A DNA stretch of 64,000 nt from Candidatus Poribacteria bacterium (GCA_022827625.1 JAJEIE010000024.1:40227-104226), one strand, 5' to 3'; positions 1 to 55,619 are shown, numbered from the stretch's first letter. Numbers and translations: made by a program. Notes: generated by a model from the sequence alone, not told the origin.

Positions 1-547
1 TCAAAACCCCTAACCACGGTGGGTTACCCGCTAAATGTTTCAGATAACCGCCTATCCCGTTCTCTTTAATAGCGATAATTTGAACGCCTAACACAGCCGT
101 TATACCGAGGGCAAGCGTTGTATTCAGGTCTGCTGTTGGGGGTTGAAGCCCGGGAATAACGCCGAGATAGTTCAGGAAGAGAATGAAGATGAAGAAGGAG
201 CCAACGAATGGCACATATTTTCTGCCGTGGTCGCCTAAAATACCACCGAAGAAATCCATGATACCGCCGACAAACACCTCTAACAGTGTTTGACCTTTCC
301 CTTCAGGTATCCGTTTCAACTTGCGAGTGGCGAAAATAAAAAATACGACTAAGACGAGAACAGCAAAGTATGTGTTAGGAATTAAATCGGGCTGATGCCA
401 CCGAGTCGGTTCTGGGATCATTTCATCCGGTAAAAGCCGTGAAATCGGGTAGAGCAAACTGCGGTGACCGTTGTCAGCTGCGAAACTCTCAGCCACTGTC
501 GCTAAACTCAGTCCCGCAACCAACCAGATAAACGATAGTTTTTTCAT
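1..547 (-). CDS. atpB: ATP synthase F0 subunit a (N-terminal part; 3' end lies beyond the window start)
   Basis: Minus-strand ATG at 545-547 opens a frame with no stop up to the window edge. Translation MKKLSFIWLVAGLSLATVAESFAA...FFIFILFLNYLGVIPGLQPPTADLNTTLALGITAVLG carries the subunit-a signature FxNxxGLIP...PTxDLNxTLALA. Confidence 0.7.
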   Translation of the reverse strand, partial: MKKLSFIWLVAGLSLATVAESFAADNGHRSLLYPISRLLPDEMIPEPTRWHQPDLIPNTYFAVLVLVVFFIFATRKLKRIPEGKGQTLLEVFVGGIMDFFGGILGDHGRKYVPFVGSFFIFILFLNYLGVIPGLQPPTADLNTTLALGITAVLGVQIIAIKENGIGGYLKHLAGNPPWLGVL

Positions 548-625
548 GTTTTGTTATTAGTGTTTCTTAAATATAGTGGTAGTTTTGGGTGCTTTTCAAT
601 TCAAAATCAATTCGGAAACGCCACG

Positions 626-1033
626 TTATGACTGATCGGTATCCTTATTCGACAGAATCGACACCACCAAGACCATCGCCTTAATAATAATAGCACCTTG
701 TACTAAAGCGATACCTCCAGCGAGCGCGTAGACATTCATCCATTCCGTTTTAAATAGGAAATAGAGTATTCCACCCAACACTGTATATTTACCTATCGCA
801 ATGAAACCCAGTAAATACTTTGTGCGATTTGTTCTCCCAGGTTGGATAAGGCGGCGGACTACAAATTCAATTGACCAGAAGAGGCTAAGGCTGATAATGC
901 TGCCGATAAGAAAACTGGGGAGTGCGGGGCGTTTGAAGCCTAACAACGCTGCTGCAACGACGATGGTGAGACAGATTGTCAAGATATAGACCTGGCGGAT
1001 AAATCGGTCACCAACTTCCAAAACGGGACCCAT
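626..1033 (-). CDS. Small polytopic membrane protein, AtpI-like (ATP synthase protein I)
   Basis: 135 aa with about 4 hydrophobic helices, immediately upstream of atpB on the same strand; position and size fit atpI. Confidence 0.4.
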   Translation of the reverse strand: MGPVLEVGDRFIRQVYILTICLTIVVAAALLGFKRPALPSFLIGSIISLSLFWSIEFVVRRLIQPGRTNRTKYLLGFIAIGKYTVLGGILYFLFKTEWMNVYALAGGIALVQGAIIIKAMVLVVSILSNKDTDQS

Positions 1034-1107
1034 CTAAATGACTCCTTTGTCAAAATAACGGCAAATCACAGTCGCCGAAATTTACCGCTTTCGGATGTTT
1101 TTGGGTG

Positions 1108-1416
1108 TTATCGTTTTTCAGAGTTTTGTGTTTGTTCTGATGTGGCGCGACGCTGTTTTTCTTGACCGTAAAGTCGCCGGTTCCAGCGCGCAACCGAACG
1201 AAACATTTCCATGAATCCGGCGGCAACCCCTATTCCGAAACCGATGTATGATCCAACTGCTGCATTGCCTAACTTTCCACCGATCCACTTACCCCCAAAA
1301 TAACCGATGCAAATCGCGAGCGCAAGCGTTATTCCAATGGAAGCGAGGTCGAACATCCCAACATTCTCATTTTTCAACGGATTGAGCCGGTGTTTGAACA
1401 TAACGGGTACTCCCAT
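1108..1416 (-). CDS. AtpZ-like small membrane protein (ATPase_gene1 family); the true start may be the internal Met near 1356
   Basis: Two TM helices with GxxxG-rich segments (GYFGGKWIGGKLG, IGFGIGVAAGFMEMFR) and a basic tail; lies upstream of the atpI-like gene. Confidence 0.35.
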   Translation of the reverse strand: MGVPVMFKHRLNPLKNENVGMFDLASIGITLALAICIGYFGGKWIGGKLGNAAVGSYIGFGIGVAAGFMEMFRSVARWNRRLYGQEKQRRATSEQTQNSEKR

Positions 1417-1542
1417 ACATAGCGTGAAAATGAGTGGGGGAACATGTTACCTCGTTAGCAACGGTATATATTATATCACAAGATTATGGAGAATGCAAAA
1501 AAAAGCGGGAACGCCGTGTTCCCGCCTTTATACATAGATACA

Positions 1543-2343
1543 TTATCGTTTTATATTTGCCCATGTCGTGGCGAGTTTGTCGGCGGGAGAGACATCAAAA
1601 GCGTCGTCTAATCCATCTTCCATAATCTGCGTAATATCATCCTCACTGAGGACGACATTAAAAATAGCGACATCATCAATGATGCCCCTGAAGTGACCGG
1701 CATAACCGAAACCGATGAGCAAATTAAGGTTGCTGGGACTGGAATCTCCGCACGGATGTGCGCCACATTTTACCCATTTATCTTGGGCAGTAACTTCACC
1801 GTCTTTGTACATCTTGTATTCACGGTCGTCAACGTTTCTGGTCTCGGCGACATGGATCCATTCGTCATCTACAAAAGTGCCAGCGACTGGTCTGGCAACC
1901 TCTACATAGGGTTGACAGTTGGCACCGCAATCGCCCCAATAAAAACTCAATCGACCGTCTGGTTCCAATGTCAAACAGCCTTCGCCGCCGTAAGATTTGC
2001 AAACTAAGTTTTGGCGGCCGGCACTGACGCTCTCAGGTTTAACCCAGAAAACGATTGTCACATTCCCATCGAATTGCAGGGATGCATCATTACCCATATC
2101 CACAAAAGATGAGCCATCAAACTCAAGTGCCTTACCAAATTTACCATCTACCCATTTGGGTTTATTCTTGAGCTCTCCATCGTTTCCGTTTTCTGAACTA
2201 TCTTTCGTCGTATCGCCTTTCCCTTCATCAAATTTCCATATACCGACAATGGTATCAGGGTCTAACACCGCCTCACTTGAAACGGCTAATGTTCCCACAA
2301 TAAATAGCGCAGTTATACCAATCCATAACACTCTGGATTTCAT
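1543..2343 (-). CDS. Secreted LamG/concanavalin-A-like lectin-fold protein
   Basis: Signal peptide, then the motif WKFDEGKGDTTKDSSENGNDGELKNKPKWVDGKFGKALEFDGSSFVDMG typical of LamG_3/ConA-like jelly-roll domains; paralog of 49527..50303. Confidence 0.7.
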   Translation of the reverse strand: MKSRVLWIGITALFIVGTLAVSSEAVLDPDTIVGIWKFDEGKGDTTKDSSENGNDGELKNKPKWVDGKFGKALEFDGSSFVDMGNDASLQFDGNVTIVFWVKPESVSAGRQNLVCKSYGGEGCLTLEPDGRLSFYWGDCGANCQPYVEVARPVAGTFVDDEWIHVAETRNVDDREYKMYKDGEVTAQDKWVKCGAHPCGDSSPSNLNLLIGFGYAGHFRGIIDDVAIFNVVLSEDDITQIMEDGLDDAFDVSPADKLATTWANIKR

Positions 2344-2437
2344 CTCTCGCTTCCTCCTTAGTTAATAGTTGCAGAAACGTTAGCAGGATTAGCGAAAATT
2401 GTCAAGAAAAAGATCTCTCCGTCTACCTTTGTAAATA

Positions 2438-3703
2438 TTAATTTTCAGTCCGGAGTGCGTCGGTAGGTGAAAGCCGCGCCGCCCGCATTGCAGGATAGAC
2501 GCCAAAACCTACGCCCATGACAATCGAAAAAATAACAGAAGTGAGTATCCACGGTAAGGATAACACGACGGGCCACACATCCACAACTGGCACGATCCGC
2601 ACCGCAAGCCGTGCCATCCCGTGCGCCGCCACCCAACCGCCTGCGATGCCGAGTAGCCCGCCGCAGAGACAGAGACAAATGGATTCCGTCAAGAACTGAT
2701 AAAAAATATCAATTCGTTTCGCACCGACCGATTTCCGCACACCTATCTCCCGTGTCTTTTCACCGACAGAGACGAGGCAGATATTCATGATGCCGACACC
2801 GCTGACGAACAACGAGAAACCTGCAATACTGCCCAAAGTGATTTTTATTACTTTTTGAATGTGGAAAAGTCGTCGAGCCGTCAATTTCGCTATCCAAACC
2901 CCGATAAACTCATCTTTCCCTCGGTGTCTTTTACGCAGCGTGTTTTTAACAGAATCAATAATACTGTTAATCTCTGCCCCTTTTCTAAAAAAGACGAGCA
3001 AGTAATCGACATAACGAAAGCCTTTCACCCGTTGTTGATAGGTGGTCAATGGTACAGAAATAGCGTCATCTAAAGAATACGTGTCACTGAGGCTCATGCC
3101 TTTTGTTGTCATCACTCCGATAACCCGTAACCTGATCTGCGCTTGCCGCCAATGATACCGAAGTTTCACCTCTCGTCCGATGGGCGATGCCTCCCCAAAA
3201 AGCTCCCTGGCAGTGTTAGCACCCAGGACACAGACCTGCTTTGCATTTTCGATATCGCTGTCGGAGAGGAATCTACCAACGTGAACTTCCCAACCCATGC
3301 CGGGGGCGTAGTCTGCTGTGATACCTTCTAAACGCGCTTTCGCTTGATTCCCGTTTCGGCTGCTAACAAAGGTGTTGAAGTCTTCTACTTTAGGCAAGAC
3401 ATACAGCACATCGGGGCATTCTGCCTCAACTGCGGAAGCGTCCTCAAGGGTATATCGTTCTGTCGTGCGCCGGACGAGCCGCGGTCCCTTCCAAATAGAA
3501 GTCCGTGTCCAGAATGCGATTTGGTTGGCACCGCCCATCATTTCAAGGTTTTGAGCGATGATGCGTTTCCCACCATCGCCGATAGCGATCATGCAAAGCA
3601 CACCCGCAATTCCGATGAAGATGCCGAGAATGGACAATCCTGCACGAAGCCTATTTTGCGCAAGGGGCTTCACACCCGCAGCTATAGCATCACGAAGTTT
3701 CAT
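2438..3703 (-). CDS. ABC transporter permease, MacB/FtsX-like (MacB periplasmic core domain + FtsX 4-TM domain)
   Basis: N-terminal TM helix, a large periplasmic domain, then three C-terminal TM helices ending ...GVYPAMRAARLSPTDALRTEN, the canonical FtsX-family C-terminus. No ATPase gene is adjacent. Confidence 0.8.
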   Translation of the reverse strand: MKLRDAIAAGVKPLAQNRLRAGLSILGIFIGIAGVLCMIAIGDGGKRIIAQNLEMMGGANQIAFWTRTSIWKGPRLVRRTTERYTLEDASAVEAECPDVLYVLPKVEDFNTFVSSRNGNQAKARLEGITADYAPGMGWEVHVGRFLSDSDIENAKQVCVLGANTARELFGEASPIGREVKLRYHWRQAQIRLRVIGVMTTKGMSLSDTYSLDDAISVPLTTYQQRVKGFRYVDYLLVFFRKGAEINSIIDSVKNTLRKRHRGKDEFIGVWIAKLTARRLFHIQKVIKITLGSIAGFSLFVSGVGIMNICLVSVGEKTREIGVRKSVGAKRIDIFYQFLTESICLCLCGGLLGIAGGWVAAHGMARLAVRIVPVVDVWPVVLSLPWILTSVIFSIVMGVGFGVYPAMRAARLSPTDALRTEN

Positions 3704-3802
3704 TGCTGCACCTTTTTTGTCTCAGAACTCGGAAGGACCTACCGATGTGCTTGAAATCCGACAGGTCTTCGGGGATTACTAATCACCTGAATGGGTGTTG
3801 TC

Positions 3803-5551
3803 CTACCTCTGTCCCAGCACTTTCAGAAATTCTGGATCCTTTTGGACATCCGAAAACTCAGGAGTCTCAACGAAAGTCGGGTAGTATGTATCCTGATAAT
3901 TATAAGGCTCTACCATATAATCGTTCTGAGCAACCTTCAAGTGCTGTAAAGTTTTTTCTCGATCCTTCTCAGAAGCCCAGATGCTCACGGCAAGCATGAA
4001 GTGGCCATAAGGGTTGTTATTTCCCAAATCGACGGCGATTTGTAGCATCCGCGTTGCTTCGCTATACTTTTTCGACCATACCAGACAACAACCGACATCG
4101 TGAGCAGCCCAAATAAGGTTGTAGGTATTGACCGGATAACGGGCATGCTGTTTTTCTACTTCCCCTTCGATAAACGTCCTTGTATCTGTCCAGACTTGAT
4201 CGAAACGATCCCAATCTTCCTGTTTTCTATACAACAGAAGCCGATTGGTTCTTACAGCTAACCAGAATCTAAAATAATTCCGCCAACCGGGTTCACCGTT
4301 GGCACGTTCCAATTTTTCTATTTCGAGAAGTGCCACATCTAACCGGTCATTGCTTCGTAATATTTCCGCTCCCATTTGTAGAAAATCGCAACGACTGTAC
4401 TGACTCACTTTAGGGTTCTCCAAGCGTTCAGATGCCTCATTATAGAGTTGAATCCAGTCATCAATACGACCTTCCGCTGCCCAACATCCAGCGCTGGTTA
4501 GATTGGAAATGATCCTTAACACATATTTTTCTGACTGCTTGCATGCCCAACGGTAAAGACGGGTCTGCTCCGCAATAGCTTCTCGATTTCTCTCAAGAAA
4601 AGCGAGACTATTGACTAACGTGTTATGCGCCCAGAAACGCTCCGTATTATCTGAGGTCTCATCTATATACCTACGGAGTAGAGATATCCGTTTTTCCATG
4701 CCGAGTTTGCCCATATACGGGTATATCTCATCAACGGCAAGATGTGCCAATTCGGGTGTGGTTTTACCCTTAAGGGCAGCTTCAATCTCGTTGCAGGCTT
4801 CTGTAAGAATATCCGATCGTGATGCAGGATCAGATTTCACATTCTCCATGAATGCAGTGAACCTGCTACGAATTTCTTCTAATTGATTCATGATGTTCTC
4901 CTTGAGAGTATCTGATAGTTCTAAATGACCAAAGAATTCTTGATTCAAGAATTCTGAATCTGTTTGCAGACGCTTTCGCGCCCGTTGGAGTCGGCTCGTA
5001 ATTGTATTCACCGACACTCCCATGAATTGGCTGATCTCTTTCGTTGACATTTCGTCAAGATAGTAGCGTGTTACAACTGCGCGTTCATTCTCTGGCAATT
5101 TTTCCAAAAGTCTTTTCACAAGTTCATGGTAACGCTCCGTCCTCTCTGTCATCCGCTGTTCCGATATATGATGTGTATAAGAGGATTCCTCGATTTCTTT
5201 AACGGGTGTGTCCTCCAGTGATTGCATCACAGACTTTTGGCTTCGCATCCAATCAATACAAAGCCGATCTGCGATGACATGGAGCCATCCGGCAAATTGA
5301 GTGGGATTCTTGAGGGTCGGAAGTTTTTTGTATGCCCTAAGGAAGGTGTCTTGCATAATATCTTCCGCATGGTGAAAATCTTGGGTCTTCCGCCATGCCA
5401 GGGCATGAATGCTCTTTTGGTACTTTTCGACTAAGATACCAAACGCAGCGTCATCACCCGATAAGATTTTGCGGATTAGTTGAACATCGTCTTCTCTTTT
5501 CACGAAACTTTCTCCTAATGAACAGATTCGATTATGTTTGCCCTCATTCAA
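3803..5551 (-). CDS. ECF-type sigma-70 factor with a ~380-aa C-terminal TPR/helical-repeat extension
   Basis: N-terminal sigma70 region 2 (FGILVEKYQKSIHALAWRKTQDFHHAEDIMQDTFLRAYKKL) and region 4 (LPENERAVVTRYYLDEMSTKEISQFMGVSVNTITSRLQRARKRL), followed by long helical repeats. Confidence 0.75.
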   Translation of the reverse strand: MNEGKHNRICSLGESFVKREDDVQLIRKILSGDDAAFGILVEKYQKSIHALAWRKTQDFHHAEDIMQDTFLRAYKKLPTLKNPTQFAGWLHVIADRLCIDWMRSQKSVMQSLEDTPVKEIEESSYTHHISEQRMTERTERYHELVKRLLEKLPENERAVVTRYYLDEMSTKEISQFMGVSVNTITSRLQRARKRLQTDSEFLNQEFFGHLELSDTLKENIMNQLEEIRSRFTAFMENVKSDPASRSDILTEACNEIEAALKGKTTPELAHLAVDEIYPYMGKLGMEKRISLLRRYIDETSDNTERFWAHNTLVNSLAFLERNREAIAEQTRLYRWACKQSEKYVLRIISNLTSAGCWAAEGRIDDWIQLYNEASERLENPKVSQYSRCDFLQMGAEILRSNDRLDVALLEIEKLERANGEPGWRNYFRFWLAVRTNRLLLYRKQEDWDRFDQVWTDTRTFIEGEVEKQHARYPVNTYNLIWAAHDVGCCLVWSKKYSEATRMLQIAVDLGNNNPYGHFMLAVSIWASEKDREKTLQHLKVAQNDYMVEPYNYQDTYYPTFVETPEFSDVQKDPEFLKVLGQR

Positions 5552-5758
5552 AAGGCTTAATCAAATTCCTTAAATTAAGCAATACAATACGATTCGGACC
5601 TTCTATTATTAAAGACGAAAGTTTGAGCAGAAAACGTGCATTATGGAAAAAAACCAAAAAACTGAATGTTTTAGAATTTGTTTTGTGAGTATTAGGGAAT
5701 AAAAAAGGGAACCGGTAAAAAACCAGTTCCCTGTGGACATTCTACTGGACTTCGGAAG

Positions 5759-6100
5759 CTAAACTGACAATCCAGCAACAGCAGCGTCTTCACTGTCGAA
5801 ATGTTCAAATAGATTCACCACACGACTCAGAACAATGAGATTTCTGATATGTTTTCCGACATTGATGACCCCTACGCGTCCGTGTTTCCGTGATGCAGCA
5901 GCGTATGCTTCCATCAAGGTCCCAAGACCTGAACTATCAATCCGATTGACCTGCTCGAAATTGATGAGGATACGTGGCGTATCAGAAGCCTCTATTTGTG
6001 GCAAGATGACTTTTCGTAAGTCTGATGCGGAACGTCCGCCTACCTTTCCAGTGGGTTTTAAAATCGAGATGCCATTTTGCTGGCGAATTTGCGTTGTCAT
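5759..6100 (-). CDS. STAS-domain anti-sigma-factor antagonist (SpoIIAA/RsbV-like)
   Basis: 113 aa with ILINFEQVNRIDSSGLGTLMEAY, the STAS fold with its conserved phosphorylatable Ser region; AGGAG Shine-Dalgarno upstream. Confidence 0.8.
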   Translation of the reverse strand: MTTQIRQQNGISILKPTGKVGGRSASDLRKVILPQIEASDTPRILINFEQVNRIDSSGLGTLMEAYAAASRKHGRVGVINVGKHIRNLIVLSRVVNLFEHFDSEDAAVAGLSV

Positions 6101-6216
6101 TTTTTTCTCCTTTTTTGTTTTTGGAATTTGTAACTGTTAATTGTTTTTTAATATTGTTCAAACGTTCACTTTAAGGATGCATTGACTTGACCCGAATTCT
6201 ATAAAAAACCGCCTTT

Positions 6217-6411
6217 TTAACGCAAATCCAAGTCCGCGTCCGTTTTGAGGAGTCTGTGGAATGTTTCAAAAGACGCTCCCCAAAGTTTCTCCTCTGTATA
6301 AGGATCGCCCGGTTCAGCTGGCACGACAGTCTCATCACAACCGAAAGCAAGGTAACCGATGCCGAAGAGTAACAAACAGACGAGGAATAGATTAATCATT
6401 AGGAAACGCAT
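6217..6411 (-). CDS. Small lipoprotein (about 64 aa) of unknown function
   Basis: The internal Met MRFLMINLFLVCLLLFGIGYLAFGC has a signal peptide plus lipobox-like FGC and an AAGGAG SD 7 nt upstream; the longer 100-aa ORF upstream lacks an SD. Confidence 0.4.
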   Translation of the reverse strand: MRFLMINLFLVCLLLFGIGYLAFGCDETVVPAEPGDPYTEEKLWGASFETFHRLLKTDADLDLR

Positions 6412-6686
6412 TTTTTTCTCCTTATTAGAATAGGACTTGCATTTGAATTTGCAAGTGACAATTTTGCTGAAATTTTTCTTTTTGATCCGTTGATTTAAGT
6501 GACGCATCTTAGATGTCAAAAGGTTGCATTATTTTCAAAACGGGTGTTGAAACCAAATGATCTCAATTTGCAAGAACGGAGAGATAGGAGATGTATTCTC
6601 CAGACCCCTCAGCCTTTTCATTTTTCCTCCTTTTGCCTATATAGAGTTCGTTCAGGAAAAAAAGATAGTAAAGAATTGTCAGTTGT

Positions 6687-6725
6687 CGTTACTACAAACG
6701 AGTTCCAAAACAGTTGCATTTTTTT
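6687..6725 (-). promoter_or_regulatory. ECF-type promoter-like motif (minus-strand GGAAC-N13-CGAC) shared with the sigma24 locus
   Basis: A ~38-nt block, cgttactacaaacgagttccaaaacagttgcattttt, is about 85% identical to 16656..16692. On the minus strand it reads as an AAC...CGT ECF-like -35/-10 pair. Confidence 0.4.
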
Positions 6726-6830
6726 CATTTAAGTTGAACTGGCGTTTTATAAAAATTGATAGCGAAACCCAACTTTGGATACTTTTTGGATTGTTGGGTT
6801 TCGCTCTGTCTATCCGCAGTGCTGTTCGTG

Positions 6831-8042
6831 TTAATTTCGCGCCGTGCTGGCGTAAAATTCCGAGATACTTTCAACGCCGCGCAGCAGCATTTCATCACTC
6901 AAGTGAAACGCCTCGCGTATTTTCAGTTTTTGCTTATCTTCTATTGAAGCAAGCAACCGTTGATTTGGTACAACATGGACGGAGTCAGCCTTTTCTCGAA
7001 GTTCCTGCAGTCCCTGCTCTGCTTTTTCGGCACGGCGTTGCCCTTCAAAATTGAACGGACACGTCACAACGCCTACCGCTAAAGCCCCTTGCTCTTGAGC
7101 AAGAGAGGCAATCAGGGGTGCAGCGCCTCCGCCCGTTCCGCCACCCATACCGGCTACAACGAAAACGATGTCGGCATCGGCAACGACGTTATGGAGTTTC
7201 TCTCGATCCTCCTCGGCAGCCCTTTTGCCCATCTCTGGATCCGCTCCGGAATACCCCGGAGTGGTGTTAGCACCAATCAGCACGGGTGTTGCGTCATTGT
7301 GTTTGTCAAGTGCTTGCTGGTCTATATTCACTGCGTAAAATTCAATATCTGTCAAACCAGATTCAATCATCCATTTGACGGCGTTACCGCCCGCACTACC
7401 GACACCCACAACCTTGATTTTGGGGTGGAGACGCTTGGATTCTTCACGTTTAGATGACATAGTTCTCCCTCTTTCAGGTTCGACACCGAACGCCTTGCGT
7501 AGGAGTTCACGTGTCTGTCTTAACCGTGTTTTAACTGTACCTATCGCTAATCCGAGTTCAGCGTGGATCTCTTTGATACTCCACGATTCCAGATAGTATA
7601 GCACCGCGACACGTCGCACTTTATCTGGCAGGTGATGCACTGCTTCTTTTGCGTCTTCGAGGCGTTCGATTTCTCGAAAATATCCCACCGCGTCCTGATC
7701 AATGCGATGGGTTAGATCGGCATAACTGGACGGAATTTCGCCGCTTGCGTGGCGTGTGGGCGTATAGTACCGCTTACAAGCGTTGTCCGCAATGCGGTGC
7801 AACCAGCCACTAAAACTTTCGACGCGTCGGAGTTGGCTGATGTTTTCCCAGACGGCTCTCCAGATGTCCATAAGGATTTCTTCAGCGTCGCGGCGTTGTC
7901 TCGAATTTGCGATAACGACTTTCCAGATGCGAGGACTATAACGCGACATCAGTTCTGTAAATGCCAACTCATCACTTGCTTGGGCAAGCCGAATGAGTTC
8001 TTCATCTGTCAGATTAGTGTGCGTTAATAGATCGTATCGCAT
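6831..8042 (-). CDS. ECF sigma-70 factor fused to a C-terminal FtsZ N-terminal GTPase domain (tubulin/FtsZ GTP-binding domain only, no T7-loop domain)
   Basis: Residues 1-190 carry sigma70_r2 (FTELMSRYSPRIWKVV...WLHRIADNACKRY) and r4 (LPDKVRRVAVLYYLESWSIKEIHAELGLAIGTVKTRLRQTR). Residues ~207-403 read KIKVVGVGSAGGNAVKWMIESGLTDIEFYAVN...VVAGMGGGTGGGAAPLIASLA...VPNQRL, with the tubulin signature GGGTGGG. By eye this is ~2/3 identical to the GTPase domain of the resident ftsZ (46202..47506). It ends just before the T7 loop. Confidence 0.85.
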   Translation of the reverse strand: MRYDLLTHTNLTDEELIRLAQASDELAFTELMSRYSPRIWKVVIANSRQRRDAEEILMDIWRAVWENISQLRRVESFSGWLHRIADNACKRYYTPTRHASGEIPSSYADLTHRIDQDAVGYFREIERLEDAKEAVHHLPDKVRRVAVLYYLESWSIKEIHAELGLAIGTVKTRLRQTRELLRKAFGVEPERGRTMSSKREESKRLHPKIKVVGVGSAGGNAVKWMIESGLTDIEFYAVNIDQQALDKHNDATPVLIGANTTPGYSGADPEMGKRAAEEDREKLHNVVADADIVFVVAGMGGGTGGGAAPLIASLAQEQGALAVGVVTCPFNFEGQRRAEKAEQGLQELREKADSVHVVPNQRLLASIEDKQKLKIREAFHLSDEMLLRGVESISEFYASTARN

Positions 8043-8233
8043 AGTAAAGTTCCCAATTGGGTTTTAACCTAAAGAGGCAGATTTTTCGCGGGGCGGTTTA
8101 AAAAAATTGAGAAGTCACATTTTTTCGATAGAGCAGGACTTCTCAAAAACCTCCTGTGCCAGGAGGAAGTGGCTTTGGCTTAGGGGGCATTAACTAACTA
8201 TTACGTGAATGATGTCTCCGGGTTGGATTTTTC

Positions 8234-8458
8234 TTAACATTGTTGTGGGTGTGAGTCGATGGCTTGGGTCAAGGCGAACTCTAAAAGGGCGATTGCTTGT
8301 TCCCGAGAGACAGAAGGGAATCCTTCAAGAAAATAGTCAAGACTCTCTCCAGCTTTTAGGTGATCAATGAGTGCCTTTACGGGAACACGAGTACCAGTAA
8401 ACACCGGTGTTCCTCCATGAATCTCAGGATCCTGATTTATCACTTGTTCTGGTTTCAT
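8234..8458 (-). CDS. DUF433-family small protein (antitoxin-like), without the usual PIN/DUF5615 partner
   Basis: 74 aa with GTPVFTGTRVPVKALIDHLKAGESLDYFLEGFP, characteristic of DUF433. Confidence 0.55.
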   Translation of the reverse strand: MKPEQVINQDPEIHGGTPVFTGTRVPVKALIDHLKAGESLDYFLEGFPSVSREQAIALLEFALTQAIDSHPQQC

Positions 8459-8639
8459 TTTTTAGGGTTCTCCTTGTTATTTTTTGGAAAACAAACCTTT
8501 GATCTGCCTGAGTTACTACCTGGGGACGACCTATTAAGTTGTCCTTGCTTTTGGTCTCCAGTGTCAAGGCATCTTTACCCAAAAACTTTGATAAAATTAT
8601 ACAATTTTCCGCAGCGAGGATGCCAATCAAACTCACGTT

Positions 8640-9548
8640 TTAGTCAACATCTCCTGCCTCTAAGTATTTTAGCGGGCTTTCGATGATGTAGTCCCCCGAC
8701 TCCTCAAGAAACTGCTGCACCAGATAGACATGCCCGACACCGATAATCAGAAGGATTCGATCATCGGTAGACTCAGTGATGCGCGTCAGATTTACAAAGA
8801 TTTTGAGATTCCGTGCGTACCAAACATGGGCGAGCCAATCTGCCCCCGGATATTGGTCGCCAAGTCCAATACGGGCATCATGTATGTATGCTCGCTGGCT
8901 CGCGCGGGTCCTTACAGGGTGATTGAAGCGTATATACTTGTCAATTATCGATTCATATTTCTCAATTTTTCCTGAATCTGTCGGATCTCCGAAACGGTGA
9001 TCCTCAGGGGATCCGAAAAGGTGCTCCTGATTGTGAACTTTTGCAAACTCGCTTCGGTTTATCAAGTGATCCTTAATTTTTTCAAGGATCGGGTTTCGCT
9101 CTGGCCAATAATCTACACAATATATTGTTGAATGTCCAAACGCTTTTGCCAACCTATAGCCGATCTGATCCCCCTCGTACCGCTCAAGTTCGTATGTCCC
9201 ATTCAAATAACCTTGATACCTTTTGTTTTCAGAGGCGCAACGGCTTGGATCCAATTCAACCGCTATTTTGGTAGGTTTAAACGCTTTAAGGTGTTCAAAC
9301 ACTTGTTTAATCTCGCGCTGGCGTTTGGGCACAAGGACATCATCCGCAAAGTGCCAACTACCAAGAATCATAATTGTCGGTTTTTTCATCATTTGCTTAC
9401 TTTCTCCTGTAGATACGTCTGTCTGATTCTCGCTTGTGGCTGTGCCGGCAATAGATAGCACGGCGGCGAGTAAGGTTATGAAATAGAGTTTGCATTTCAC
9501 TAAGATTCTCATAAAATTTTCTCCTATCTGTAGATTAAACCCTTCCAA
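8640..9548 (-). CDS. Secreted TraB/GumN/Tiki-superfamily protein (DUF5694-like), paralog 3 of 3
   Basis: Signal peptide; N-terminal GxxH (IMILGSWHF), conserved Glu (ITESTDDRILL) and C-terminal GxxH (IIGVGHVYLV), as in the Tiki/TraB/GumN superfamily; tandem with two paralogs. Confidence 0.5.
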   Translation of the reverse strand: MEGFNLQIGENFMRILVKCKLYFITLLAAVLSIAGTATSENQTDVSTGESKQMMKKPTIMILGSWHFADDVLVPKRQREIKQVFEHLKAFKPTKIAVELDPSRCASENKRYQGYLNGTYELERYEGDQIGYRLAKAFGHSTIYCVDYWPERNPILEKIKDHLINRSEFAKVHNQEHLFGSPEDHRFGDPTDSGKIEKYESIIDKYIRFNHPVRTRASQRAYIHDARIGLGDQYPGADWLAHVWYARNLKIFVNLTRITESTDDRILLIIGVGHVYLVQQFLEESGDYIIESPLKYLEAGDVD

Positions 9549-9689
9549 AAAGGATCATCAAATTTCAGCAACTCTGGTGGAGGGTAAAAACAAATGACCA
9601 CTTCCGCTGTAGGCACGGTTTCCCAACCGCGCCGATCGCACTGTTCCATTAATTCCAAACTTCACCTTAAAATAATGGGTTTAAAGTGT

Positions 9690-10658
9690 CTACTTCTCCG
9701 CCGCGTCCAAGTATTTCAGCGGACTTTCAACGATGTAGTCCCCGGACTCCTCAAGAAACTGCTGCACCAGATAGACATGCCCAGCACCAATAATCAGCAG
9801 GATCCGTTCGTCGGCAGATTCGGTGATGCGGGTGAGATTGACGTAAATCTTTAGATTCCGATCGTACCAAGAGTGAGCGACCCAATTAGCACCTGGATAT
9901 TGGTCGCCGTTCCCTATACGCGCGATCCACCGTATATATCGTTGATGGGACACACTTCTACCTTCAGGCTCGTTGTGGCGTATGTACATGTCAATGATCG
10001 GTTCGTATTTCTCAGGCTCAATCCAGGTTACGCCACTTTCATCTTGTATAACTTTTCCATCAGTTGTAGGCGGAGGTGGAAGAAGATGTTCCTGATTATG
10101 TGTCTTCGCGAACTTTTGATAGTCTATTAAATCCCAATCAAAACCATCTGGAAAAAAAGGGTGATTGTCTGGCCATGGCCAATAATCAACGCCATACACC
10201 TTTGGATGTTCCATCTGTTTTGCTAATCGAAATCCAATCTGGTTACCTTCCCCGCGTTTGAGTTCGTACGTTCCTTTGAGATAGGCTTGATAGTTTGCAT
10301 TGATCTCGGCATCAAATCTTTCATCTGCCTCAAGGGCTATCTTGGTAGGTTGAAATGCCTTAAGCTGTGTGACGAGTTGCTCAATTTCCTGTTGGCGTTT
10401 AGGGGCGAGGACATCATCCATTTTGTAGTTGAAGGCATCCATTCCCGGATTTGATAAGTGTCCGCTGCCAAGAATCATGACTGTCGGTTTTTGTACCATT
10501 TGCGGAGTTTCTCCTGTAGAGGAATTTGTCTGACCATCGCTTACAGCTATACCTACCGTAAATAACATACCAGCAAGTAGTACCGCTGTATAGGTTTTGC
10601 AATTTGCTAAGACTTTCATAAAACGTTCTCCTATCTCTAAGGCGGTTGATAGCCCCAA
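9690..10658 (-). CDS. Secreted TraB/GumN/Tiki-superfamily protein (DUF5694-like), paralog 2 of 3
   Basis: VMILGSGHL...ITESADERILLIIGAGHVYLV; about 60% identical to its neighbours. Confidence 0.5.
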   Translation of the reverse strand: MGLSTALEIGERFMKVLANCKTYTAVLLAGMLFTVGIAVSDGQTNSSTGETPQMVQKPTVMILGSGHLSNPGMDAFNYKMDDVLAPKRQQEIEQLVTQLKAFQPTKIALEADERFDAEINANYQAYLKGTYELKRGEGNQIGFRLAKQMEHPKVYGVDYWPWPDNHPFFPDGFDWDLIDYQKFAKTHNQEHLLPPPPTTDGKVIQDESGVTWIEPEKYEPIIDMYIRHNEPEGRSVSHQRYIRWIARIGNGDQYPGANWVAHSWYDRNLKIYVNLTRITESADERILLIIGAGHVYLVQQFLEESGDYIVESPLKYLDAAEK

Positions 10659-10696
10659 AAAGGGGTTACCAAATTTCCAACAATTAGGAAAGCACG

Positions 10697-11491
10697 TTAT
10701 CGAGTTCCTGTTTTGCCTGAATCCAAGTATTGCAACGGGCTTTCTATATTATAGACCTCGGAGTCTTCCACAATCTGTTTAAGGAATCCTAAGTGCCCAG
10801 CACCGATGATTAGCAAAATACGCTCATCTTCTGATTCCGTAATTCGGGTGAGATTGACAAAAGTTTTGAGGTTCCGATTATACCAAAAATGTGCGACCCA
10901 ATTCGCCCCCGGGTACTCGTCTTGAAGACCAATTCGGGCAATCCGTAAGTAGTCGCGGAGGTTTGTGCGGATCTCTTCATCTTGGTTCTCCCGTATATAC
11001 ATGTCAACTATGGGTTCGTATTTTTCAGGCTCAATCCAGATTCTGCCATCTTCATCCTGCGTCATTTTTCCAGTAGGTGGCGGTCCCAGAAGATGTTCCT
11101 GATCGTTCGTCTCTGCAAACGCCCCGTAATCTGTCCAATGATCCTCCCGATCCTCCCGAACGATTGGATCATCGCGCAAATAATCTACACAGTGGACCTT
11201 TGGATGTCCCATCTGTTTCGCTAATCGGAATCCAATCTGGTGGATTTCATGGGGTTTAAGTTGGAAGTTGTCCTTCAGATAGGCATCATATTCGTTCTGA
11301 AGTTCAGCCTCCCAATGTGTATCAACTTCGACGGCTATCTTCGTCGGTTTGAAACGGGCAAGTTGTTCAACGAGCTGCTGAAGTTCGGCTTGGCGTTTGG
11401 GTGCAAGGACATCGTCCATTCTATAATTGATTCGATCTGCTCCCCAATTTGCCAAATGTCCACTACCCAGAATCATAAGTGTCGGTTTCAT
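10697..11491 (-). CDS. TraB/GumN/Tiki-superfamily protein (DUF5694-like), paralog 1 of 3
   Basis: LMILGSGHLANW...ITESEDERILLIIGAGHLGFL. The called start sits at the GxxH motif, so this copy may lack a signal peptide or have an upstream alternative start. Confidence 0.45.
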   Translation of the reverse strand: MKPTLMILGSGHLANWGADRINYRMDDVLAPKRQAELQQLVEQLARFKPTKIAVEVDTHWEAELQNEYDAYLKDNFQLKPHEIHQIGFRLAKQMGHPKVHCVDYLRDDPIVREDREDHWTDYGAFAETNDQEHLLGPPPTGKMTQDEDGRIWIEPEKYEPIVDMYIRENQDEEIRTNLRDYLRIARIGLQDEYPGANWVAHFWYNRNLKTFVNLTRITESEDERILLIIGAGHLGFLKQIVEDSEVYNIESPLQYLDSGKTGTR

Positions 11492-12154: not shown

Positions 12155-14725
12155 TTAAAACATGCGAGACCACTTAAAATCGACTTGATACCCGCGTCCC
12201 TCTTCGAGTGCTTTCGCAAGGTTCACTCTGAAGGGACCCCCTTGGAAGCCTATACCGAGATTAACCTTGGGTTGTATCTGCTCTATGTCTTCCAAGCGAT
12301 ACCACACTTGTCCTACATCTACGAAGGGGATAAGGAATGCCCCGTCTCCTAAACTGTGAGCATACTCCAAGTTGAAGAGGAAGCCGTGGTTGCCCGCAAA
12401 TTCATAAAGCGAGTAGCCGCGGAGTGTTCCGATACCACCGATAACGAATTGACGTTGATAGGGCAGCTGCCCCGTTGCAGTCCCGACCTTTAAACGGGCA
12501 TCAACTCTATCGTCTCCGATGGGATAGTAGTGGCGGAAATGTGCCTGGAAGCGCGTAAAATCAAAATCGGAACCGATTGCAGGACTGGTGTGCTCTACAA
12601 GAAACGTGTTATACCATTCGACTGCATTTTCGCGGTTCTTAAAGTTTTCTCGGTTCTCAAAGTCGTATTTTACGTCAGTCCATCCGCGATTGTCAAAGTC
12701 GTATTTTAAGGAGATACTCCGCATACTGCCAGGGTGTATCGGCGAATTTTGCCGTCCCGCTAATTCGGGGTGTGCTGACCAATTTCTGAGATGGAAGTCC
12801 ATCGTCCGCTGCAGACTGTTGTGTTCTTCCCAAAGTACGAACGCTCCCAACGAATGCTTGATATTTGGAGATTGCCATTGAAGTGCTGTCACCCCACCCT
12901 CTCTGAGATAGTAGTCTTGGAAATCAGTGCCCCACAATGCCCGAACAAACTGCTCACTATCACTAAGCAAGAGGTCTCTGTCCCTGACGGAGGTTAACCG
13001 ATGGATTTGCGCGCTGTATATCAGGTGTGAATCTCCACCTATTGTTACACCGCCACCCGCTCGGTAATTCGTGCTTCGGCTTGAGAGCCCGTAACTTATT
13101 GTGCCGAACCAAAAGGGATCCACTGACCTATCCCTTTGTGTCCGGGAACCGGCTTCGTGAATATCAATTGAGGCAGTCGTTTCGTACCCGTTTGGCCGAA
13201 TCGTTGAACCCGATCCCGTAAAAAAGAGTGGATCGGAATGCCACCGTTTGCCGATTTCAAGTCCACCACCAATCCGCAGCCCATCAACCGATGTGAGGCT
13301 GCTGGCACTCACAGGACGGAAGAGGTCCTCACTTGATGAATTCACTACTTTAGGACGGATTGGAGTTGGTGTCAGAGAGACATTGTTGGTGCTTCCTAAA
13401 ACAGGTTCTGTTGGTTCACTGGGTTCAATAGGTTCGCTGGGTTCAGCGAGTTCTGTTGGTTCACTGGGTTCAACAGGTTCTAAGGTGTCCAACGAACCTT
13501 GCGGATCTGACAGTTTTGGCGGCAATACATGTAACCAGTGTCCGTCATTTTTATAAGTGTCATCAACACCTATATTTGACCACCAAGAACGGATACCCGT
13601 CCGGACCTGACCGCGGTCAAAGTTAATCCCCATCCGAATCGGTTCGGTTGTGTCTGGGTAATCCAACATTTCCCACGGAATTTCCATTTCCACAACCCAG
13701 CCAGTCGCATTGACGTTAGCGGCGACGTTCCACTGATCCATCCATTCGGTTTTGTTTGCCTCCTGTTTGGGAGAGCGGACGAATTTTTTGCCAATCGGGT
13801 TTGCCATGAAGAAGGTGCGATTAGAAAATCTGTGTGTGTGGAAAGGATCGATGCTGAAGGAGACCCAATCCTCTGTCATGTCAAACCTGACATGATCTTG
13901 AATTTGCCGGGCAATGATCTTATCCGGTTCGCTATCATAGAGATGCCATGCGACGTAGATGGCTTCGTTTGTGTAAATCAGTTTAACAACTGTATCATCC
14001 TCGACCGGATTTTCACTACGCGCATTTGTGAAGTTATTCGCTTCGGGGGCAATTTTCCAACACGCATCGTTAAGGGTTCCATCAATAATTGGAACATTTT
14101 CGACTTTTACAGCGAGTAACTCTCTCTGGACCGTGTCCGCAATCGATTTCGACTGCGCCTTCAGCGCATCACCGACATTGATATCCATCGCACCAAAGTT
14201 GCTCAGATTGCTAAGCAAGTCCTCGATCCGTTCTGGTGCGATTTCTCCGACGATGTTGACAAAGGTAGCTTCTCCAGATGTTTCAGGGATCACGATGATG
14301 AAAATCCCATACACCATATCTTCATCAAAAAGTAGACTAATTTCTACAACTTCACTCTCTTCCTTGATTTTGACCAGAACCTCCCAATTATCTTCCTTGA
14401 GCCTCCGCTGAAAGTAGCCGACCAATTCCTGTTCGTCGATGGTGAGTCTATCATAGGTACGAACATAAATGCCGTCCAGCATCCGAATTAACTCGGCAAT
14501 TTCCGGTGTGTTGCTCACCGATTTCGTAACCAAGTTGATAAGTTTTGCCGTTAGATTAACCTCAACTTTTGCTTCAAGCGAGGCTGGAAAATCAAAGATG
14601 ATAAGTCCTTTTCTTTCAGTTTCGTCCGCTCTGTCCTGTTGTGCAACTGCCGACTGCATCGGTATTAGCGATAAAACTAAAAACGATAGTATAAACAGCA
14701 GGACACAGTGCTTTTGCAGTTTCAT
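12155..14725 (-). CDS. Large secreted multidomain envelope protein: DUF4252-like N-domain, CBM9/DOMON-like domain, EPxEP linker repeats, C-terminal outer-membrane beta-barrel
   Basis: Signal peptide; the N-terminal ~170 aa resemble 14722..15417 (FVNIVGEI... versus FVNIYGEI...); NDACWKIAPE...AWHLYD block; EPVEPSEPTELAEPSEPIEPSEPTEPV repeats; alternating beta-strand pattern ending ...DFKWSRMF (terminal Phe). Confidence 0.6.
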   Translation of the reverse strand: MKLQKHCVLLFILSFLVLSLIPMQSAVAQQDRADETERKGLIIFDFPASLEAKVEVNLTAKLINLVTKSVSNTPEIAELIRMLDGIYVRTYDRLTIDEQELVGYFQRRLKEDNWEVLVKIKEESEVVEISLLFDEDMVYGIFIIVIPETSGEATFVNIVGEIAPERIEDLLSNLSNFGAMDINVGDALKAQSKSIADTVQRELLAVKVENVPIIDGTLNDACWKIAPEANNFTNARSENPVEDDTVVKLIYTNEAIYVAWHLYDSEPDKIIARQIQDHVRFDMTEDWVSFSIDPFHTHRFSNRTFFMANPIGKKFVRSPKQEANKTEWMDQWNVAANVNATGWVVEMEIPWEMLDYPDTTEPIRMGINFDRGQVRTGIRSWWSNIGVDDTYKNDGHWLHVLPPKLSDPQGSLDTLEPVEPSEPTELAEPSEPIEPSEPTEPVLGSTNNVSLTPTPIRPKVVNSSSEDLFRPVSASSLTSVDGLRIGGGLEIGKRWHSDPLFFTGSGSTIRPNGYETTASIDIHEAGSRTQRDRSVDPFWFGTISYGLSSRSTNYRAGGGVTIGGDSHLIYSAQIHRLTSVRDRDLLLSDSEQFVRALWGTDFQDYYLREGGVTALQWQSPNIKHSLGAFVLWEEHNSLQRTMDFHLRNWSAHPELAGRQNSPIHPGSMRSISLKYDFDNRGWTDVKYDFENRENFKNRENAVEWYNTFLVEHTSPAIGSDFDFTRFQAHFRHYYPIGDDRVDARLKVGTATGQLPYQRQFVIGGIGTLRGYSLYEFAGNHGFLFNLEYAHSLGDGAFLIPFVDVGQVWYRLEDIEQIQPKVNLGIGFQGGPFRVNLAKALEEGRGYQVDFKWSRMF

Positions 14726-15417
14726 TTGTTCTCCTCCTTGTTTGAGTGATCGTTTGTTTCAGTTTCTGATTTCGGTGCTTCGTCAGGTTTTTCCGAGTTG
14801 ACCTCCGCGGGCCACCATTGGGAATTAGAAGGGTTTACTAAATCACGAAGCGTCTTGGACATCCCCTCTTCCGAACTGGATGCCATAAGGCGTCCAAATA
14901 GAGCACCAAGCTTCTGGAAGTCGATTTCCCCATAGATATTCACAAAACTCCAGCCTTCATTGTCGATAATCGTGGCGAAAATACCGTGCAGTATCCCCGG
15001 TTCTTCCGCATAGAGCAGACTGAGATTGAATTTGTCCTTAATTTTGACGATATGTTCCCACTTTTCGTCTGCAAGTATACCTTGGTAATGGTCTATGATC
15101 TGGTTGAGATCTTCCGTCTCTTTATCGTAGGCTCGGACAGCCGCGCCTTTTAGCATGTTGGCATACGCCGTATAGGCTGTCATGTCTGTGGGTGGATCTC
15201 CATCAGATTTTGGAATGCTCGCCATACCGAAATTGATAAGCAGATTGAAGAATGTTTTATCCAAGTTAATTACCATTTTGGGAGCAGATGTATCTGGCAG
15301 GTCCATCGCTACTTTACCGCGGATGGTCTCTGTTTTTTCTGTGCCGTTGGTCAGAGCATCCGCGTTTGTCAAGACACAGCTGACTATTAAAAGTGCTGTA
15401 AGGGCGAATTTTCTCAT
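14722..15417 (-). CDS. Secreted DUF4252-like protein
   Basis: Signal peptide; shares a domain with the N-terminus of 12155..14725; overlaps its neighbours by 4 nt (ATGA), consistent with translational coupling in a sigma/anti-sigma operon. Confidence 0.55.
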   Translation of the reverse strand: MRKFALTALLIVSCVLTNADALTNGTEKTETIRGKVAMDLPDTSAPKMVINLDKTFFNLLINFGMASIPKSDGDPPTDMTAYTAYANMLKGAAVRAYDKETEDLNQIIDHYQGILADEKWEHIVKIKDKFNLSLLYAEEPGILHGIFATIIDNEGWSFVNIYGEIDFQKLGALFGRLMASSSEEGMSKTLRDLVNPSNSQWWPAEVNSEKPDEAPKSETETNDHSNKEENK

Positions 15418-16097
15418 TGGGTTTTTCCTTTTTGTTCTGAGTTTTGGGTACCTTCTGTATTCGGAGCATTTTCGGATTCCCGGTTAAGACTATCCAAACT
15501 CCGGTGAATTGCTGATGAAATGTTCATTTTCTTTTTTAATGCCCTGCGCGAAGCTTGTTCAATCTGAACAAACGGACGCTGTGAAGCTTTATTAATCTGG
15601 GCATTTGGCAGTTTCTCGTTGACGACAACGTTGGTTCTCTCCACGGCGTAGTTCAACTTGCTGAGGGCATAATTCAAGTCCTGAGCAGCTTGCATGATTT
15701 TTTGATGCTGTTGATACTGGTAAATACCAAATGCGACAATTCCAAACAGACATGCCAACGCACCTGCGCGAACAAGTGAGAAAGTTAAATTATCCCAGAA
15801 TGTAGATAATTGAAATAACCGATGCCACCATCTTTCACCCTTATCCGGGTGGGCGCGGACATACGCCGCAACCGCATCGAAGACGGCTGGCGGCGGTTCT
15901 GGTCTTGGAAGCTCGTGTAATGCTTCGCCGATTGTTTGGGCAAAGTGAACTTCATCTTGACACGTTGGGCAGGACGTAACGTGTGCTGCTATTCTCGCGT
16001 GTGTCTCTGCATCCAACTCGTCAGCGAGATATGCCTCTAAGGTGTCCTGAACTTCCAGACAAGCTGAATCTTGAGGGCGTGAAAATTGATGATTCAT
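15414..16097 (-). CDS. Anti-sigma factor, zf-HC2 type with one TM helix
   Basis: HARIAAHVTSCPTCQDE is the HxxxCxxC zinc-finger anti-sigma motif, followed by a TM helix (LACLFGIVAFGIY); 4-nt overlap with the sigma gene. Confidence 0.75.
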   Translation of the reverse strand: MNHQFSRPQDSACLEVQDTLEAYLADELDAETHARIAAHVTSCPTCQDEVHFAQTIGEALHELPRPEPPPAVFDAVAAYVRAHPDKGERWWHRLFQLSTFWDNLTFSLVRAGALACLFGIVAFGIYQYQQHQKIMQAAQDLNYALSKLNYAVERTNVVVNEKLPNAQINKASQRPFVQIEQASRRALKKKMNISSAIHRSLDSLNRESENAPNTEGTQNSEQKGKTQ

Positions 16098-55612: not shown

Positions 55613-55619
55613 AAGTCTT

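Follow-up and report, generated by a model that had tools for sequence, protein, structure and literature searches.

Gene content of the locus

The DNA analyzed here is a 64,000-nucleotide stretch from Candidatus Poribacteria bacterium, an uncultured inhabitant of sponges (GCA_022827625.1 JAJEIE010000024.1:40227-104226; hereafter the window), and its subject is a group of genes around two extracytoplasmic function (ECF) sigma factors that carry long extensions. From position 8042 down to 1543, the minus strand encodes, in this order, an ECF sigma-FtsZ fusion (sigma::FtsZ), a 64-amino-acid (aa) open reading frame (ORF), a STAS protein, an ECF sigma factor with a tetratricopeptide repeat (TPR)-like extension (sigExt), a permease with MacB_PCD and FtsX domains (FtsX permease), and a LamG-like protein. 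Left of the LamG gene, the ATP-synthase operon starts (AtpZ, AtpI), and it makes up the flank outside the window's left end, as relatives show. Domains were called with Pfam and NCBIfam. They bore out the gene content that a first-pass annotation had listed: sigma::FtsZ, STAS, an ECF sigma factor with a long extension, and a MacB/FtsX permease lacking an ATPase are all present on the minus strand, and two extension-bearing ECF sigma factors adjoin the STAS gene. That annotation had also pointed out the common orientation of these genes, but the minus strand carries every gene between 626 and 17914, so that co-orientation says little. The features referred to below are as follows (all promoters are putative).

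1543..2343, minus strand: LamG/concanavalin-like secreted protein (Pfam); present or absent at this place among relatives (tblastn)
2377-2405, minus strand: candidate sigma-70-type promoter of the LamG gene, TTGACA-N17-TAACGT, in the spacer upstream of LamG
2438..3703, minus strand: MacB-type permease (MacB_PCD + FtsX), 421 aa, no nucleotide-binding domain (Pfam)
3803..5503, minus strand: sigExt, 566 aa, ECF sigma factor (residues ~1-195) plus ~370-aa TPR-like alpha-solenoid extension (Pfam)
5607..5643, minus strand: near-invariant ECF-type promoter of sigExt, TAATGCACGTTTTCT-N-AAACTTTCGTCTTTAATA (top window site in a matrix scan)
5698..5731, minus strand: intrinsic terminator, 11-bp GC-rich stem and T tract, directly 3′ of STAS (terminator scan)
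5759..6100, minus strand: STAS, single-domain protein of the anti-sigma-factor antagonist family, 113 aa (Pfam, NCBIfam)
6217..6411, minus strand: small peptide, 64 aa, conserved in 16 loci (tblastn)
6494..6531, minus strand: ECF-like promoter in front of the small peptide gene, TAATGCAAC-N18-CGTCAC (the block is invariant across 13 loci)
6749..6806, minus strand: terminator-like 13-bp hairpin with U-rich tail, 3′ of the sigma::FtsZ stop codon (RNA fold)
6831..8042, minus strand: sigma::FtsZ, 403 aa, ECF sigma factor plus N-terminal GTP-binding domain of FtsZ, one ORF (Pfam)
8071..8101, minus strand: promoter of sigma::FtsZ, TTAAACC-N17-CCTCTTT, with its end ~28 nt 5′ of the ATG; conserved

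sigExt and the genes downstream of it

sigExt and the FtsX permease gene form a robust unit, the sole tightly coupled pair of the stretch. The 99-nt spacer between them contains no terminator and no stable structure (z = +1.0), and the permease is probably cotranscribed with sigExt. For comparison, the window proteins were searched with tblastn against 72 related loci, every one from a Poribacteria metagenome-assembled genome (MAG), which yielded the synteny and identity values; neighboring genes were counted for 110 full-length sigExt copies and 32 FtsX genes of the related loci. The upstream neighbor of the FtsX genes was sigExt in 28 of the 32 and sigma::FtsZ in 2, and in locus L081 sigExt and FtsX overlap by 4 bp. 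Counted downstream of sigExt, the FtsX permease (28 copies) has a median gap of 15 bp. The other genes found there are another sigExt (17 copies, 302 bp), a pair of ABC-2 permeases (15 copies, 37 bp), a DUF5916/CBM9 protein (15 copies, 97 bp), an S9 peptidase (7 copies, 204 bp), and a secreted protein of ~480 aa (7 copies, 254 bp).

The permease itself possesses the four-transmembrane (TM) FtsX domain (PF02687, E = 2.5e-18) and the periplasmic core (PF12704, E = 5e-37) of MacB-type transporters and aligns to MacB residues 254-648 (E = 6.6e-53); a nucleotide-binding domain is neither fused to it nor encoded beside it. In the related loci, a MacB-type ATPase gene never adjoins FtsX. ORFs with both Walker-A and LSGGQ motifs in these loci are solely exporters of a ~620-aa class (320-640 aa as called, some truncated) with fused transmembrane and nucleotide-binding domains. 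Such exporters follow FtsX in six loci; none is present in the window.

A GTG codon is taken as the start of sigExt, as supported by homologues with a called length of 566 aa and by a GGAG ribosome-binding site 8 nt 5′ of this codon. Pfam places Sigma70_r2 at residues 24-90 and r4_2 at 127-179 of the 566-aa protein (40-106 and 143-195 in the 582-aa translation of the ORF), and TIGR02937 matches with 103 bits. The extension, which the first-pass annotation had called a TPR domain of ~380 aa, measures ~370 aa and yielded no Pfam TPR match. An AlphaFold model built with 27 sequences (mean pLDDT 73, above 85 at residues 280-520) is, in this part, an all-alpha solenoid. Foldseek matched the N-terminal part of the model to SigW and sigma-E, and the extension to TPR proteins (LbcA, OGT, NprR, and MalT domain III) with TM-scores of 0.25-0.34. 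Since distant homologues of the extension also give weak TPR matches, the label "TPR-like" is fair. sigExt thus has the makeup of a one-component ECF sigma factor: regions sigma-2 and sigma-4 only, an extension longer than 50 aa, and no co-encoded anti-sigma gene. Specifically, annotation of the window and of loci L001 and L081 showed no zf-HC2/RskA-type gene beside sigExt; the window's only zf-HC2 gene (15414-16097) pairs with a different, short ECF sigma factor.

The predicted sigExt promoter at 5607-5643 scores 48.5 bits. Its motif was found 5′ of 77 of the 110 copies with a regular expression and of 84 with the matrix, and the element GCA(C/A)G-N17-CGTC(T/A) is located 25-120 nt upstream of these 77-84 copies. 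Scanning 1.44 Mb of related loci with the matrix placed the motif 5′ of 84 sigExt, 10 S9-peptidase, and 5 extension-only genes. Extension-only ORFs of 361-393 aa behind a sigExt-type promoter are present at L017:8632-9807, L015:12174-13352, L018:8618-9799, and L031:15265-16350; the L017, L015, and L018 copies start with an S9-peptidase signal peptide, which is absent from the 361-aa L031 copy. The notion that such ORFs are membrane-anchored decoys was rejected, as their N-termini are the signal peptide of the neighboring S9 peptidase. Judged from their sequences, they look like recombination chimeras, which suggests that the locus is highly recombinogenic. The window's own sigExt was also considered as a simple recombinant of two tandem paralogues found in relatives. 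Its sigma part resembles the FtsX-proximal paralogue and its extension slightly resembles the STAS-proximal one, which is opposite to the pattern expected from a simple deletion.

The sigExt family, lineage-specific and very large, comprises at least 508 confirmed relatives in Poribacteria genomes. Its extension belongs to a family that is rare, with 116 clusters in a set of 1.84 billion representative proteins. The extension is fused to a sigma factor in Poribacteria and in one Chthonomonadaceae MAG, and occurs as a standalone protein of ~360 aa in Gemmatimonadota. One standalone homologue (Gemmatimonadota) is encoded inside an array of MacB_PCD/FtsX permeases lacking an ATPase; other standalone homologues and the sigma-fused one of Chthonomonadaceae have no permease neighbor. 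That the standalone proteins are split versions encoded beside an ECF sigma factor was rejected because the small ORFs next to them have no sigma domains.

The small peptide-STAS pair, the FtsZ fusion, and their surroundings

The gene order of the window recurs in 13 other species-level genomes as sigma::FtsZ ... small peptide-STAS-sigExt (one to three copies)-FtsX-(LamG)-atp. Conservation of the island as a unit, which the first-pass annotation had named as a check, was borne out there; in ~10 other Poribacteria, the equivalent locus comprises sigma::FtsZ, sigExt, and atp but no STAS (L004, L005, L009, L028, L045, L050, L066, L071, L073, and L081, with FtsX in L028 and L081). In L025 and L073, the small peptide gene is present and STAS is absent. 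From sigma::FtsZ to the small peptide gene, the gap varies between 0.3 kb (window) and 5.5 kb, and in relatives it is filled by DUF5916, S9-peptidase, ABC-2, or insertion sequence (IS) genes. No gene of the block is better conserved than STAS (92-98% identity to the window protein in 13 loci); the orthologous FtsX copy reaches 89-97%, and the sigExt extension is least conserved (62-78%). Near most of the 110 sigExt copies, STAS is missing.

The product of the 64-aa ORF had been annotated as a lipoprotein. The ORF is real, but position 25, the putative lipobox cysteine, is Cys in 5 of 17 aligned orthologous copies and Ser or Tyr in the others, which does not fit a conserved lipoprotein; by its sequence, the product is a small signal- or TM-anchored peptide. 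Residues 1-24 are hydrophobic and near-invariant, the tail is acidic, and neither Pfam nor NCBIfam gave a match. The putative promoter is positioned a fixed 77 nt before the ATG in orthologous loci. It scores 12.2 bits against the sigExt matrix, which makes it the second-best site of the 64-kb window and the only other sigExt-like one (128 kb, both strands); shuffled sequences gave none of at least 8 bits. Across all loci (2.9 Mb scanned), this promoter accounts for 8 of 14 weak matrix matches. Further 5′, two conserved non-coding blocks (window 6563-6621 and 6682-6720) comprise one with a 19-codon ORF after a GGAGG ribosome-binding site and another that is a second TGCAAC-containing block; in its predicted fold, the conserved 19-codon ORF/hairpin does not stand out from shuffled sequence (z = -0.9).

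By score, STAS is a member of the anti-sigma-factor antagonist family: TIGR00377 gives 55.6 bits, above the curated cut-off of 53.45, and PF01740 matches with E = 8e-13. The profile of its family matches SpoIIAA structures (E = 7e-9) with the DSSGLG motif in register. Within the phospho-site motif D55-S56, D55 is invariant and S56 is present in at least 90% of 30 family members; S56 aligns with the DSSGLG motif of SpoIIAA, in which the phospho-serine, Ser58, is located. The conserved Ser56 suggests control by phosphorylation, with a kinase or phosphatase encoded elsewhere. The terminator directly 3′ of STAS folds with z = -4.0 compared with shuffled sequence, and its stem is invariant in 12 aligned loci; an Rfam scan of positions 1-9000 returned a single chance-level match, overlapping this terminator.

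STAS paralogues (113 aa, ~70% identity) occur elsewhere in the same genomes, near rpsB-tsf-frr, and in one locus as an array of four copies within 10 kb next to heparinase-like genes. Arrays were seen at L077:8782-10342 and 17441-17782 and at L074:10001-10342, with heparinase II/III-like neighbors, and near them a 983-aa ECF sigma factor with a beta-propeller-like extension is encoded. The paralogues have a conserved upstream motif of their own, ACGAAC-N-GACTAA, and have in common with the window STAS gene only the proximal TGAACGTT block, a possible promoter of STAS itself. In relatives (L001:895-2348 and 13123-13976; L008), transposase genes of IS605 (TnpA/TnpB-like) and IS630 have entered the locus, both in the interval from the small peptide gene to STAS and behind FtsX; the STAS-proximal upstream block is intact there.

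As the first-pass annotation had stated, STAS has no RsbW/SpoIIAB-type kinase nearby, either in the window or in relatives. Among ORFs of at least 150 aa in the 64-kb window, Pfam detected no HATPase_c, SpoIIE/PP2C, or ABC_tran domain. A phmmer search of six-frame ORFs, short ones included, in 78 loci plus the window (1.56 Mb) returned no RsbW/SpoIIAB-like kinase, with approximate RsbW and SpoIIAB queries and a heuristic search. Likewise, no kinase or phosphatase was found within 10 kb of the STAS paralogues or in the Pfam-annotated contexts of orthologues.

In sigma::FtsZ, Sigma70_r2/r4 are followed by the Tubulin/FtsZ GTPase domain at residues 208-366 (E = 1.3e-40). At 64% identity, the C-terminal half matches residues 5-202 of the true FtsZ, whose gene the window carries in the dcw cluster (46202-47506), and the FtsZ part (window 6831-7442) appears to be a recent within-lineage copy of these residues. 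The alignment to the host FtsZ stops at residue 202, and the fusion ends before the T7 loop. Of the FtsZ hallmarks, GTPase domain, T7 loop, and FtsZ_C, only the Tubulin domain is found; TIGR00065 scores 231.7 bits, under its cut-off of 295.2, and is covered at positions 8-206 of 353. The glycine-rich nucleotide-binding boxes are retained (GGGTGGG at residue 300). FtsZ that lacks the T7 loop and the C-terminal domain does not form a complete GTPase active site in a filament. From its sequence, the truncated FtsZ part could bind GTP and a filament end but not activate hydrolysis.

In 22 related loci, the fusion likewise reads as one intact ORF (395-421 aa). Aligning the upstream regions of 21 orthologues showed TTAAACC to be invariant and a downstream CTC element to be conserved (TTAAACC-N17-CTC(T/A)TT); this motif differs from that of sigExt. 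The hairpin at 6749-6806 has a folding energy of -22.5 kcal/mol (z = -4.4), equaled in none of 200 shuffles. sigma::FtsZ is best seen as another extension-bearing ECF sigma factor; it could bind FtsZ filaments, and nothing observed here links its function to STAS. In L019 (7205-8485) and L073 (7699-8979), it is directly followed by the gene of another type of FtsX permease, which has 41-43% identity to that of the window. The window is without this second type, and there sigma::FtsZ is separated by 311 bp from the ORF containing the small peptide and by 419 bp from the peptide's ATG. A third kind of extension was noted in ECF sigma factors of 573-577 aa with a full domain resembling DnaN, the DNA polymerase III beta-clamp (cluster c53: L015:1110-2837, L019, L028), an assignment made by reading the sequence only; their sigma part is ~49% identical to that of sigExt.

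Further right in the window, a 74-aa DUF433 gene (8234-8458; 94% conserved in L013) is located between sigma::FtsZ and three tandem DUF5694 genes (8640-11491); DUF433 genes are often antitoxin-like. After the DUF5694 genes, a classical module (12155-16627) consists of a short ECF sigma factor (16094-16627) and its zf-HC2 anti-sigma factor (15414-16097), together with a DUF4252 gene (14722-15417) and an 856-aa DUF4252/CBM9/Omp85-like protein. The set of DUF5694 and short ECF/zf-HC2/DUF4252 genes recurs beside sigExt arrays in many loci. A gene for a restriction endonuclease of BsoBI type (PF09194, E = 2e-141) adjoins a DNA methylase gene at 53235-55810.

Interpretation and comparison with known systems

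We lean, by a modest measure, toward reading the stretch as a hot spot of self-contained, extension-regulated ECF modules, specific to Poribacteria and situated upstream of the ATP-synthase operon, with four transcription units of which sigExt-FtsX is the core, and with the partner of STAS encoded elsewhere. The terminators, the three distinct types of conserved promoter, and the unstructured sigExt-FtsX spacer argue for four units rather than one operon. Unit 1 would be sigma::FtsZ-N with its own promoter and terminator; unit 2 the small membrane peptide and STAS with an ECF-like promoter and a terminator; unit 3, the functional core, sigExt and the MacB-type permease behind an autoregulatory ECF promoter; and unit 4 LamG. 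The suggestion that all these genes form one system is thus weak, given the invariant terminators after sigma::FtsZ and STAS, the different promoters, the gap of variable length behind sigma::FtsZ, and the scattered STAS paralogues.

sigExt would then act as a one-component ECF sigma factor with no anti-sigma partner, its fused TPR-like domain gating the sigma domains, as would be expected by analogy with ECF41 and ECF42. Once active, it would read its own near-invariant promoter, resulting in positive feedback and coexpression of the downstream cargo. In the window, the cargo would be a permease without an ATPase of its own, which, if there is one, would be encoded elsewhere; paralogous sigExt modules with other cargo (ABC-2 pairs, DUF5916, S9 peptidase) would have been duplicated, recombined, and deleted at the locus. 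The small peptide-STAS pair would be a lineage-specific insertion. Its promoter resembles that of sigExt, so that a sigExt-type sigma factor probably reads it; going by this promoter, the pair is possibly part of a sigExt-type regulon and, more speculatively, might feed back on the system. STAS would most likely act via a kinase, a phosphatase, or another target encoded elsewhere, not via the fast-evolving extension.

Several points weigh against this reading. The promoters are predictions made solely from conservation and ECF-like spacing. That of the small peptide gene reaches 12 bits, compared with at least 27 bits for the training sites, and a different sigma factor may read it. The remote kinase is an assumption based on the scans of the window and the related loci. 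The adjacency of small peptide, STAS, and sigExt, kept in 12 of 14 loci despite heavy rearrangement, could reflect a functional link that is underrated here. Finally, the location of the Gemmatimonadota homologue in a permease array suggests that the permease may be more than cargo.

The model of the first-pass annotation, in which a kinase-independent STAS protein binds the extension of sigExt, of sigma::FtsZ, or of both, so that the island is one switch from envelope or transport status to division, would account for the missing kinase and phosphatase genes in the window, for the want of an RsbW/SpoIIAB-like kinase in 1.56 Mb of related loci, for the ~270 bp that separate STAS from a sigExt-family promoter downstream of it in 12 of 14 loci, and for the related promoter 5′ of the small peptide-STAS pair; moreover, the TPR extension of ECF42 likewise has no known interaction partner (PMC8999054). 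We nevertheless regard it as very doubtful. STAS and sigExt are separate units divided by an invariant terminator, ~10 other Poribacteria keep both sigma factors without STAS at the equivalent locus, most sigExt copies have no STAS near them, and STAS paralogues are found beside unrelated genes. An identity of 92-98% for STAS compared with 62-78% for the extension is a poor fit to a coevolving interface between the two, and the conserved Ser56 points to phosphorylation and hence to a kinase somewhere. Rather unlikely, though of appreciable weight, is that the genes are neighbors by descent: the small peptide-STAS pair would have no link to either sigma factor, the promoter resemblance would be coincidental, and STAS would serve in canonical partner switching elsewhere. 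The STAS-bearing loci belong to one clade with general synteny to the atp operon, the paralogues use ACGAAC-N-GACTAA and have only the TGAACGTT block in common with the window STAS, and in L031 an IS element splits the small peptide gene from STAS and leaves this block intact, all of which is consistent with such an origin. However, chance resemblance sits badly with a promoter that is the only other sigExt-like site in the window and makes up 8 of 14 weak matches in 2.9 Mb, and the adjacency persists despite frequent IS insertions and module turnover.

The permease could also be a sensor, with the sigExt extension docking on the cytoplasmic side of the ATPase-less permease of MacB or ABC-2 type, in place of the missing nucleotide-binding domain, and the sigma factor being held at the membrane until a periplasmic signal arrives. 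The tight and recurrent sigExt-FtsX pairing (28 of 32 FtsX genes; at its tightest, an overlap by 4 bp) would follow from this arrangement, as would the 15 further sigExt copies that precede ABC-2 permease pairs, likewise without ATPases, the FtsX-type permease 3′ of sigma::FtsZ in L019 and L073, and the Gemmatimonadota extension homologue within a MacB_PCD/FtsX array devoid of ATPase. We consider it improbable, as about as many sigExt copies precede genes of exported proteins, secreted or of the outer membrane (DUF5916, S9 peptidase, c3), or another sigExt, none of which could tether a cytoplasmic sigma factor, as other standalone homologues and that of Chthonomonadaceae have no permease neighbor, as complete ATP-binding cassette (ABC) exporters follow FtsX in six loci, and as permeases without an adjoining ATPase gene are already known (NCBIfam ADOP family TIGR03434, matched here). 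In its widest form, a conjecture to which we would give little credence, ECF sigma factors of Poribacteria may have ATPase-less permeases of MacB/FtsX or ABC-2 type as their sensors or tethers in the membrane, the fused domain (TPR-like, FtsZ, or DnaN) occupying the vacant cytoplasmic face of the permease and STAS and the small peptide acting as competing or modulating partners, with no anti-sigma factor, kinase, or ATPase involved.

As regards the island of the first-pass annotation, the result serves chiefly to correct the picture: it reads as a neighborhood of independent modules, and its STAS protein is one of many kinase-less copies in these genomes. No class of sigma regulation is less well understood than that of ECF sigma factors with fused extensions. 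Nature has set up an experiment on them in Poribacteria, with hundreds of sigma-TPR-like paralogues that have one promoter and differ in extension and cargo, and with sister FtsZ and DnaN fusions nearby. If the extensions decide which paralogue is active, this would amount to a compact group of one-component sigma switches that might lend itself to engineering. With ATPase-less permeases so often paired with sigExt, one may ask whether these permeases serve in signaling rather than transport. To our knowledge, a pairing of an ATPase-less permease with an extension-bearing ECF sigma factor has not been described; the terms FtsX, MacB, and permease are absent from the main text of the ECF reclassification paper, and the literature search returned nothing relevant on anti-sigma factors of Poribacteria or on ECF sigma factors with STAS, FtsX, FtsZ, or tubulin.

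Among known systems, the STAS protein resembles SpoIIAA and RsbV: it is a single domain of ~113 aa that scores above the TIGR00377 cut-off, and its DSSGLG motif aligns with the phospho-serine of SpoIIAA. Unlike in their case, no SpoIIAB/RsbW-type kinase or PP2C phosphatase is encoded in the operon, the 64-kb window, or the related loci examined; STAS is multicopy and dispersed, and the adjoining sigma factors are of the ECF type (group 4), whereas SpoIIAA/RsbV pathways serve sigma-B/F-type factors. STAS antagonists can be encoded away from their kinase. A partner-switching module linked to an ECF sigma factor is known from Bordetella (BtrS-BtrUVW), where the kinase/anti-sigma partner is known; in contrast, none was identified for the window STAS in the window or the related loci examined. 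The C-terminal half of sigma::FtsZ is like FtsZ in sequence (64% identity) and in its glycine-rich boxes, and unlike it in lacking the T7 loop and the C-terminal domain, in being fused to an ECF sigma factor, and in having its own conserved promoter. With the type VII permeases MacB, LolCDE, and FtsEX, the window permease shares the four-TM FtsX domain and the MacB periplasmic core, and with the ADOP family, reputed to be "orphan" permeases, the lack of an adjoining ATPase gene. It differs from ADOP in being a single, unduplicated 421-aa module and in its systematic location directly 3′ of an extension-bearing ECF sigma factor.

The closest relatives of sigExt in design are the ECF42 sigma factors (Streptomyces venezuelae, and ECF-10 of Pseudomonas putida), which likewise combine an ECF core with a helical-repeat, TPR-like extension and have no anti-sigma gene nearby (PMC8999054, PMC7826278). 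Fused extensions regulate extension-bearing ECF sigma factors (PMC7826278, PMC8999054), and that of ECF42 has been proposed to act through protein interaction (PMC8999054). By extension and neighborhood, sigExt itself does not fit ECF42: its extension has ~370 aa, compared with ~200 aa in ECF42 (PMC8999054), and escapes the Pfam TPR models that recognize the latter, and instead of the conserved YCII-related neighbor of ECF42 (PMC8999054), none of which was annotated in the Pfam-annotated neighborhoods of sigExt, permeases and secreted enzymes are found. Unlike ECF42, sigExt has a rare extension family of its own, greatly expanded in a single phylum. Thus, extension-regulated ECF sigma factors as such were already known, and what is new is a further family of extensions on them together with its recurrent partnership with ATPase-less permeases.

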